Assembly: GCA_964644295.1 (NCBI GenBank) | Contig: CAZXVQ010000001.1 | Coordinates: 1 to 26,836 of the forward strand | DNA length: 26,836 nt | DNA from: an uncultured Clostridium sp. | GTDB taxonomy: Bacteria > Bacillota > Clostridia > TANB77 > CAG-508 | Reading direction: 5' to 3' | Shown here: positions 302 through 1,549 of the stretch, piece after piece | How positions within the stretch are numbered: position 1 is the stretch's first letter | Layout: each line of letters opens with the position of its first letter | Notes under the pieces: generated by a model | The model's database searches: none | Told to the model about the DNA's origin: nothing | Seen by the model: the letters and a program-made list of their open reading frames with translations, nothing else | Translations under genes and position numbers: made by a program

Positions 302-1549
302 ATGGAAAGAAAACAAAAAAACACATGGACAAACCCAAAGGGAATTACACTAATTGCTTTAGTAATAACAATAGTAGTACTTCTAATTTTAGCAGGAGTG
401 AGCCTTAACGCAGTAGTAGGCAACAATGGAATAGTAAATAGGGCGCAGGAGGCAAGTAAGGAAACAGATGTCGCAGAAACAAGAGAACAAATTTTGATGG
501 GACTTGTTGGAATCTATGCAGGCGCTGGAGATTACACAAATGATGATGTAGTTACAGCAGTAAAAAATGTAGTTGGAGACGATAAAGCAATAGAAGTAGG
601 ACAAGCAACAGTAACAACAGCAAAAGGAAATGAAGTAGATATTTCAGATTTGTGGGTAGGCGTAAAAGTAACATTTGAAGATGGAAGTACCACAATACTA
701 ACAAAGGATAATTATGCACAATATTTGGGCAAAGTAGTAACAAATTATAAAGGACCGGAAGGAACTGAAGAGATACAAGTGGGAGACTATACTTACACAG
801 TATCTACAACATACAGGTTGTATTACATAGACTTTGACAATAAATATGGAGATGGAGCAGGAACAGTATATTTAAAAGCAGATGAGACAGGGACTATCTA
901 TAGCCTGCAAACAGATGGAAATGAGGCAACATCAAAAATAGCAAGTTTAAATCCGTCATTGTATGCAAATGGAGTAACAGCACCATCAAGTGAAAATAAT
1001 AATATGAAGGCAGTAACATGGCTAACAGACACAGAAAAATGGAGCGGGCTTGTAACATCTGGAGCAGAAACGGATATAGGAGATAAAGTAAATTATGTAG
1101 TAGGAGCACCAAGCCTAGAAATGATGATGGATAGCTACAATGCACATTACGGATTAAATGAAGAAAGCATGAACACAGGAACACTTGATGGAAGTACAAG
1201 AGCAAAACTATTTTACAAATATAACTCAGGAGATTATGGATATATGGTAGGACCAAGTAATAGTAGCTCTGCAACAGATGGATATTATTATTCGACATCT
1301 AATTATAGCGTTCCATCAGATAGCGATATAGATAGAGTTTATTATCCAGGAGCATGGTACTGGTTGGCTTCCCCTTCTGCTTACTCTAACTTCGTGATGT
1401 CTGTGTTCTTTACCTACGGGGGCTATGTGCACACCAGCGGCTATAACTACGCCAACGCGTTTTGCCCGCTAGTTTCTCTAAAATCTAATGTACAGTTGTC
1501 ATTGAAGGACGAGAATGTAGATTTGCCGTATATTGAGGTAGAGATGTAA
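302..1549 (+). CDS. Type IV pilin-like (class III signal peptide) surface protein with a C-terminal C-type-lectin-like variable domain
   Basis: Likely start is ATG 302 after AAGAGGAG; the ORF track extends it to TTG 245. N-terminus PKG|ITLIALVITIVVLLILAGVSL resembles a prepilin cleavage site plus hydrophobic helix. C-terminus WYWLASP...AFCPLVSLKS resembles the CLec-fold end of DGR targets. Confidence 0.8.
   Translation: MERKQKNTWTNPKGITLIALVITIVVLLILAGVSLNAVVGNNGIVNRAQEASKETDVAETREQILMGLVGIYAGAGDYTNDDVVTAVKNVVGDDKAIEVGQATVTTAKGNEVDISDLWVGVKVTFEDGSTTILTKDNYAQYLGKVVTNYKGPEGTEEIQVGDYTYTVSTTYRLYYIDFDNKYGDGAGTVYLKADETGTIYSLQTDGNEATSKIASLNPSLYANGVTAPSSENNNMKAVTWLTDTEKWSGLVTSGAETDIGDKVNYVVGAPSLEMMMDSYNAHYGLNEESMNTGTLDGSTRAKLFYKYNSGDYGYMVGPSNSSSATDGYYYSTSNYSVPSDSDIDRVYYPGAWYWLASPSAYSNFVMSVFFTYGGYVHTSGYNYANAFCPLVSLKSNVQLSLKDENVDLPYIEVEM
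1358..1480 (+). other. Putative DGR variable region (VR) and IMH-like end
   Basis: In 1358-1468 (37 codons) none ends in A; A is 17/111 (15%) and GC is 58/111 (52%), while the rest of the gene is A-rich with many A-ending codons. Many NNC/NNT codons, as expected from mutagenised AAC/AAT. No template repeat or RT in the window. Confidence 0.7.

Follow-up and report, generated by a model that had tools for sequence, protein, structure and literature searches.

A pilin-like gene of an uncultured gut Clostridium very probably ends in a variable region of a diversity-generating retroelement, with no cassette found in its 71%-complete assembly

The DNA considered here is a stretch of 26,836 nucleotides (hereafter the window) from an uncultured Clostridium sp., positions 1 to 26,836 of contig CAZXVQ010000001.1 in assembly GCA_964644295.1, and our subject is its gene at 302-1549 on the + strand, which encodes a pilin-like surface protein with a C-terminal variable region (VR). 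Positions 1361-1483 (+) of this gene are very probably the VR of a variable-protein gene of a diversity-generating retroelement (DGR). The gene belongs to a very large family of reduced-genome gut Clostridia in which a type IV pilin-like N-terminus is joined to a DUF6273/C-type-lectin ectodomain. The last ~40 codons of the family genes are written from an adenine-rich template repeat (TR) by a cassette with the order target, MutS-like gene, Avd gene, TR and reverse transcriptase (RT) gene. We have somewhat less than even confidence that the cognate cassette is in this cell now; otherwise the VR is a recently orphaned product.

The gene was taken from the list of open reading frames (ORFs) and its translation; it runs from an ATG at 302 to a stop at 1549 and has a product of 415 aa. 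An earlier note, made from the letters alone, had pointed to an abrupt block at its 3′ end with no A-ending codons, 15% A and raised GC, and this description holds. None of the 37 codons in the 111 bp at 1355-1465 (TGG to CCG) ends in A. Over 1355-1480 (42 codons, WYWLASPSAYSNFVMSVFFTYGGYVHTSGYNYANAFCPLVSL) the A content is 15.1% and the GC content 50.8%, compared with 41.5% and 36.3% in the upstream part of the gene, and a sliding composition profile makes a sharp step where the block begins. It is the lowest-A 126-nt stretch in the whole window (mean 40.9%, sd 7.0). Codons ending in A number 2 of 42 here and 183 of 351 upstream (Fisher p = 3.5e-10), the two exceptions both being CTA in the 3′ end, and the adenines that are left stand at codon position 1 (seven) or codon position 2 (ten). 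The hypervariable core at 1382-1456 (+), delimited from column entropies in 98 homologues and from the codon list, carries variable codons for Y-S-N-F, S, F-F-T-Y, Y and H-T-S-G-Y-N-Y-A-N between invariant V, V, GG and V, and all 19 of the variable-site codons have the form NNY. Adenine-free scaffold codons, together with AAY-derived NNY codons at ligand-facing residues, result in just such an abrupt, A-poor and GC-richer block. The contig reaches ~300 nt beyond the 5′ end of the gene, and in the 26.8-kb window no RT, Avd, TR or second copy of the block was found, in agreement with what had been noted before.

The evidence that carries the DGR interpretation comes from relatives. A DNA search for the A-poor block covered 40 relatives and returned two homologous blocks. 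In genome G040, of the same order, the block is the 3′ end of a 477-aa gene, and behind this target come, in order, a gene resembling MutS domain I, a bAvd gene, the block again as a 114-nt direct repeat, and a reverse transcriptase of the RVT_1 type; in the alignment, each difference between the repeat and the gene end sits at an adenine of the repeat. The G040 locus is a textbook DGR of the MSL (MutS-like) architecture. Together with a cassette in G019, of the same genus, it represents a sister subfamily, and the window protein's own subfamily, which ends A-F-C-P-L-V-S-L, has its own cassettes in relatives. One of these lies at the locus of protein P0008 (L042), whose product shares 53% identity with the window protein in local alignment and 61% over the aligned length. 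Found on three metagenome contigs, it consists of the target, a 174-aa MutS-like gene, bAvd, TR and RT, inside an element that carries an integrase and a Mob_Pre relaxase, and its TR and its own VR have differences confined to TR adenines. A cassette of the same type is present in G264, a 99%-complete genome of the same bacterial family, where TR and adjacent VR differ at 22 of 43 TR adenines and at 1 of 90 other sites. Four rabbit-gut metagenome-assembled genomes (MAGs) carry this cassette, one of them in the same bacterial family.

The TR of P0008, from another organism, is the nearest one available for the window VR. Positions 1361-1483 are 79% identical to it; they depart from it at 21 of 42 TR adenines and at 5 of the 82 remaining sites, and one codon is missing. 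The 3′ end of the VR, 1457-1487 (+; GCGTTTTGCCCGCTAGTTTCTCTAAAATCTA), which resembles an initiation of mutagenic homing (IMH) site, is the same as the VR beside the P0008 cassette at 31 of 31 nt. The base following CTAG is T in all VRs examined and C or A in all TRs examined, the kind of asymmetry expected of a homing end; the stretch is a putative IMH. The proposal of a DGR-type VR is thus borne out by the same block standing beside MutS-like-Avd-TR-RT cassettes in relatives, with TR/VR differences at template adenines; the suggested search for an adenine-biased TR near an RT or avd gene succeeded in relatives and found none in the window's own 845-kb, 71%-complete assembly.

Three kinds of detail in these cassettes are recorded here as side observations. 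At L080 (G264:C5:8000-18000) one cassette adjoins two full tandem targets and a C-terminal gene fragment, and only the cassette-nearest target is near-perfect relative to the TR at non-adenine sites (the 1/90 given above), the others having 7-8 non-adenine mismatches. The RT of the P0008 cassette (L042:8162-9121; also L043, L044) has an in-frame TGA where the G264 RT has Arg; the TGA was read on L042, the gene calls of all three sample contigs divide this RT into two ORFs in the same way, and the RT is either inactivated or subject to read-through. Loci L089-L108, from the same bacterial family, hold at least three TR subfamilies, ending A-F-C-P-L, G-F/L-R-P-L and G-V-R-P-V, with a common upstream GGTTGAATGTGG motif and a common downstream TAGCTTCTAAAAAACTGTGG motif, which are probably parts of the DGR RNA.

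Variation within the family points the same way. The window protein has more than 5,650 homologues among database proteins at E <= 1e-5, the best at 53% identity (local alignment), and no Pfam domain is on record among the listed homologues. In an alignment of 98 homologues, the columns matching 1382-1456 have entropies of 2.4-3.5 bits (one column 1.7), apart from the scaffold residues V, M/L, V, GG and V that are interspersed in the core; the flanking invariant scaffold residues have <0.7 bits, and the flanks W-L-A-S-P-S and A-F/L-C-P-L-V-S-L show little or no change across homologues. The variable columns hold almost only N, S, Y, D, G, T, A, F, I, L, R, C and H, which is what adenine changes in AAY can give rise to. 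Some pairs of the listed proteins have 99.1-99.7% identity across 329 upstream residues and yet 13-16 differences among 26 VR residues, which confirms at the family level the hypervariability that had been claimed. The counts of VR differences in near-identical pairs are bimodal, either 0 or 13-19, as expected from wholesale replacement through homing. The earlier note had named one picture as fatal to its reading, namely no TR or RT in the genome or its relatives combined with an invariant region; what was found is cassettes in relatives and variable strain pairs.

An A-poor VR is common to all 13 family genes examined, with 1-6 A-ending codons of ~41. The window VR's two CTA codons, its only A-ending ones, are also present in TRs, so that it is as clean as cassette-adjacent VRs, and its last rewriting appears to have been recent relative to synonymous drift. 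The VRs of G219 and P0017, with 4 and 6 A-ending codons, look slightly decayed. Scaffold-codon conservation at identical residues (65-83% in the VR vs 58-63% upstream) was considered as a sign of recent template refresh and dropped, as it was not significant in 7 of 8 comparisons.

That non-significant codon test also counts for a reading in which no DGR is involved and the block is a recombined or horizontally acquired segment from a higher-GC donor, or the result of amino-acid composition alone, and the composition shift taken by itself is compatible with a foreign segment. We consider this highly improbable. Synonymous choice shifts too, since A-ending codons among those for Gly, Val, Ala and Thr are 0 of 13 in 1355-1480 and 109 of 131 upstream; the same block stands in the same place in each of the 13 homologues, which come from different genomes; differences from TRs are concentrated at adenines, and cassettes adjoin the block in relatives. 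A foreign GC-rich insert or a pure amino-acid effect was rejected as contradicted by the relatives' TR/VR pairs.

A DGR origin being very probable, the remaining matter is whether the window VR is still being rewritten. Its own assembly amounts to 845 kb in 96 contigs and is 71% complete, and therefore provides no proof that the machinery is absent. AAC-rich and IMH-like motif scans of it returned only the VR itself and a low-complexity linker on contig C45, and a 32-nt match on contig C15 was rejected as a cassette trace because it lies in a sigma-factor region and is due to chance. Elsewhere, a window-specific A-free 20-mer had one match in JGI metagenomes, a chance match in an unrelated gene, and a TR-type 3′ pattern had no match in IMG/VR.

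Copies that stand apart from any nearby cassette are frequent. Long metagenome contigs supplied six sampled loci, five of which are without a cassette for 7-10 kb around, and four of these five are located directly upstream of rpsF-ssb-rpsR, rplU-rpmA, rimP-nusA-infB and rpsJ. Standing alone is the commoner state among the relatives' loci sampled. The stand-alone copies L041, L085, L086 and L087, together with L081 and L082, sit directly 5′ of highly expressed housekeeping operons (including era), and the window copy sits before trmB. G264 has, besides the two and a half copies by its cassette, more on two other contigs, beside rimP-nusA and era. Relative to the TR of that genome, these dispersed copies have changes at 23-24 of 41 adenines and at 4 of the 89 remaining sites, and their (AAC)4 run is short by one codon, a pattern compatible with, and not proof of, trans homing plus slippage. 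Of the earlier claim that the gene is remotely targeted, one part probably stands, in that the copy is stand-alone; current targeting is no more than a candidate, the 71%-complete assembly having yielded no TR, RT, Avd or MutS-like gene.

In the explanation we propose, the stand-alone window copy would receive its changes in trans from a cassette located elsewhere in the cell, the TR being copied into cDNA that then homes at the IMH-like 3′ end; the product would be exported and processed in the manner of a pilin and would expose a lectin surface that varies, and the structure bearing it might be a type IV pilus. Several results weigh against this. The window species is a single record in the protein database, and the best TR found is not cognate, given the non-adenine mismatches and the missing codon described above. 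The own assembly holds no second copy of the A-poor block; searches of it for RVT_1, 23S_rRNA_IVP, bAvd, MSL and whole-cassette DNA gave nothing above noise, and neither local tblastn with 11 RT/Avd/MSL proteins nor blastn with 13 TR subfamilies found any cassette part there. A TR subfamily fitting the window VR was not found in the 21 other species of the genus, and no cognate TR was found in one of them, G009, which is 100% complete by markers and has an orthologue-like copy.

If the VR is nevertheless live and remotely targeted, the missing 29% contains a cassette that rewrites 1382-1456 in trans and that probably sits, together with a cis target of its own, on a mobilisable element. MAGs typically lose repeats and mobile elements, and both the fragmentation of the assembly and the contig end 300 nt upstream of the gene leave room for such a loss. 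Of the 21 other species of the genus, 18 have RT homologues, which in several cases belong to full DGR cassettes, and in G019, which has a full cassette, the target also has a pilin-like N-terminus. Four-fold codons in the mutagenised part show no drift to the A ending preferred by the genome, the IMH-like end is intact, and the dispersed copies of G264 match the resident TR with almost A-only differences. Remote targets have moreover been documented for non-phage DGRs (PMC5758913). Set against these points, cassette components leave no trace in 845 kb, the fitting TR subfamily is missing from every species of the genus searched, and genomes of the same family, such as G493 and G219, appear to have VRs but no cognate TR (the scoring covered two candidates for each genome, so that the result is qualitative only). 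On balance a live target seems to us a serious candidate that falls somewhat short of even chances.

Alternatively, the DGR that wrote the VR has since been lost, for instance with a mobilisable element, and the block is now an ordinary gene end, for which we would put the chances only just below even. The lack of machinery in the own assembly and the orthologue-like gene without TR in G009 would be accounted for directly. The P0008 cassette lies in an element with integrase and Mob_Pre relaxase, its RT having the in-frame TGA, and the 4 and 6 A-ending codons of the G219 and P0017 VRs are as decay predicts. The degenerate gene tails just downstream of the window gene, described below, indicate past rearrangement at the locus. 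An incomplete assembly is, on the other hand, unable to prove absence, and the window VR is as A-poor as cassette-adjacent VRs, its two A-ending codons being both in TRs too. Any loss of the DGR must thus have been recent relative to synonymous drift. A more novel reading is a hit-and-run scheme for these reduced-genome gut Clostridia, in which cassettes on small mobilisable elements rewrite, in trans and perhaps transiently, dispersed multi-copy type IV pilin-like lectins located by highly expressed housekeeping operons, and fresh VRs persist in genomes like the present one without an RT; we regard this as rather unlikely.

The fold of the variable protein agrees with that of a DGR target. 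AlphaFold2 gave a full-length model with a mean predicted local distance difference test (pLDDT) score of 88 and an ectodomain model (residues 118-405) with 91.4. In the domain model, the ectodomain at 650-1513 (+) has a DUF6273/C-type-lectin (FGE-like) fold, with the VR forming its last strands. Its top structural match is the Thomasclavelia ramosa IgA peptidase's N-terminal domain (Z 7.3-7.7), a domain that has been assigned to DUF6273 (PMC12402451). The further matches are nearly all of the FGE/C-type-lectin kind, namely the Lcl C-terminal domain, PvdO, PorK, EgtB, CarF and many animal C-type-lectin domains, and include the DGR variable proteins TvpA, TaqVP and Mtd. The ectodomain Z-scores are modest (3.4-7.3), which establishes the fold class and not close kinship. 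The matches came from the domain model with VIA-align, and Foldseek of the whole-protein model against the PDB gave nothing significant. The window protein has no match to Pfam DUF6273 (PF19789) at E <= 0.1. That family is weakly matched by 15 of 71 homologues (best E 0.0028), the orthologue-like copy of G009 having E 0.015, and the G040 target matches it at E 4.5e-5. A structural match without a Pfam match makes the window protein a remote relative by fold and not a member by Pfam's criterion. The C-terminal CLec fold that had been anticipated is therefore seen in the prediction, through C-type-lectin/FGE-like matches to the domain model.

At the other end of the protein, 338-406 (+) encodes an N-terminal segment of pilin-like character (KG/ITLIALVITIVVLLILAGVSL), which may be a class III signal peptide with a hydrophobic helix and was recognised from Pfam N_methyl and from an N-terminus shared within the genome. 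The N_methyl score, 17.3 bits, is under the cut-off of 21.2, and position +5 is Ala and not Glu, both of which count against a pilin; Gly-1 and the hydrophobic helix are present. A 73-aa pilin gene on contig C2 of the same genome has the same N-terminus as the window protein. It is located ~2 kb upstream of PilB/PilT and adjoins a gene with a prepilin-peptidase-like CxxC motif, which was read by eye and has no placement by family search; the Peptidase_A24 match in the genome is on contig C4. Six further ORFs of the genome have the same N-terminus with different C-terminal domains. Given the C2 gene, the Peptidase_A24 match on C4 and the six ORFs, a pilin-like export and processing signal is plausible for the window protein on sequence grounds. 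Of the earlier description of the gene as a tip or minor pilin, the pilin-like character is moderately supported, through an N-terminus shared with the small pilin of the type IV pilus operon and despite the sub-threshold N_methyl score, and we infer that a location at the pilus tip, or a minor-pilin role, may apply. As a separate observation, the paralogues C42:6494-8029 (L006), C58:433-1779 (L007) and C93:3-785 (L008) have N-termini with 51-63% identity over ~75-95 residues and C-terminal domains that are unrelated. The shared N-terminus looks like a portable export module.

Type IV pilus tips can bear minor pilins with C-terminal lectin-like domains, as in CofB and TcpB. These resemble the window protein in being large and pilin-like, the pilin helix standing at the N-terminus and a binding domain (predicted here) at the C-terminus, but there is no significant structural or sequence match to them, only a very weak Foldseek match to 5AX6. 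We know of no DGR diversification of CofB or TcpB. A survey places the G-type pilin domain among the rare VR-bearing domains (PMC11661182).

Among known DGRs, one close parallel is TvpA of Treponema denticola (PDB 2Y3C; PMC5758913), which is likewise a surface protein with a C-type-lectin/FGE-type fold and a C-terminal VR, diversified by a cellular, non-phage DGR with several paralogous targets scattered in the chromosome and remote targeting. Its structural similarity to the window protein has Z 4.7-5.1. TvpA differs in that it is a lipoprotein and not pilin-like, and that the accessory gene of the Treponema cassette is of the HRDC kind, where the window's relatives have MutS-like and Avd genes in theirs; in the window's own assembly no cassette was found. 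The order of target, MutS-domain-I-like gene, bAvd, TR and RT in those relatives is shared with MSL-type cassettes (architecture D of Wu et al., PMC5758913, including the Legionella DGR). The differences here are that the window has none of these genes, that the hosts are reduced-genome gut Clostridia and that the targets have a pilin-like N-terminus.

DGR-diversified adhesins of type V pili have been described in Bacteroides (bioRxiv 10.1101/2024.11.15.621889). They too are pilus-associated proteins of gut bacteria with cassettes on transferable elements (as for P0008), but the window family has a type IV-like class III signal and a DUF6273-like fold, belongs to another phylum, and its incorporation into a pilus is putative. 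DGRs of Faecalibacterium prophages target DUF6273, the VR lying at the C-terminal end of this domain (PMC11792537). These targets and the tentaclins (PMC11792537, PMC10743442) have in common with the window protein the VR at the C-terminal end of a DUF6273-type domain and gut Firmicutes as hosts. They are phage tail or receptor-binding proteins, whereas the window family is chromosomal, multi-copy and located by housekeeping operons and, unlike in the prophage systems, its TR pattern is not found in IMG/VR contigs.

The known DGR paradigm is not departed from, since C-type-lectin VRs, the MSL-Avd-TR-RT order, non-adjacent targets and DUF6273 targets have all been published (PMC5758913, PMC11792537, PMC10743442). 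Less familiar are the size of the pilin-like family, its multi-copy dispersal beside translation operons in Clostridia of 1.2-1.8 Mb and the frequent apparent separation of VR and machinery. An unannotated gut-metagenome family of more than 5,600 members is hereby given a mechanism, in which retroelements rewrite the binding face of pilin-like lectins at the surface. This raises the possibility that in small-genome Clostridia fibres akin to type IV pili bear DGR-diversified adhesins, in parallel to the type V tip adhesins of Bacteroides. Stand-alone copies provide a test bed for the reach of DGRs in trans and for how long the signature of a VR outlives its machinery. For annotation, an abrupt A-poor 3′ block in a gene flags a DGR target even with the cassette missing from the MAG.

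A few minor features remain at the end of the gene and beyond it. The window protein has a 13-residue C-terminal extension (1511-1549, DENVDLPYIEVEM) that is absent from all 97 aligned homologues, which, unlike it, terminate directly past the L-x-L motif. Downstream, two 103-nt units within 1550-2004 form orphan tails. Tail 1 (1565-1667, +), assigned from repeat family D7, alignments and translation, begins with a hairpin in degenerate form, goes on with an IMH-like stretch that lacks one base and closes with the 3′ end of another, different target-type gene; tail 2 (1795-1897, +) is 85% identical to it. Their ends resemble the post-VR end of a G019-type target (SLKSDVTTAQVKK vs FLESSVTKAQVNK), a resemblance present in the DNA alignment only, BLASTP of tail 1 against the G019 target having given nothing, and the tail junction has ACGCC in common with the VR. 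In the simplest reading, the tails are probably remnants of tandem paralogous targets that were lost by deletion between the hairpin and the next VR; such tandem copies, with a C-terminal fragment, are offered by G264.

The hairpin itself has a 14-bp stem and a 4-nt loop and occurs ~75 nt (L041) and ~55 nt (G009) downstream of stand-alone genes, at L041:11325-11356 and L050:371-402 (minus strand), with differences that preserve pairing. Its DNA fold z is -5.6 and -6.9; it is intact in L041 and G009 and degenerate at the start of the window tails, and the P0008 gene beside its cassette has none behind it. A terminator is one possible role for it, recognition of DGR targets another.

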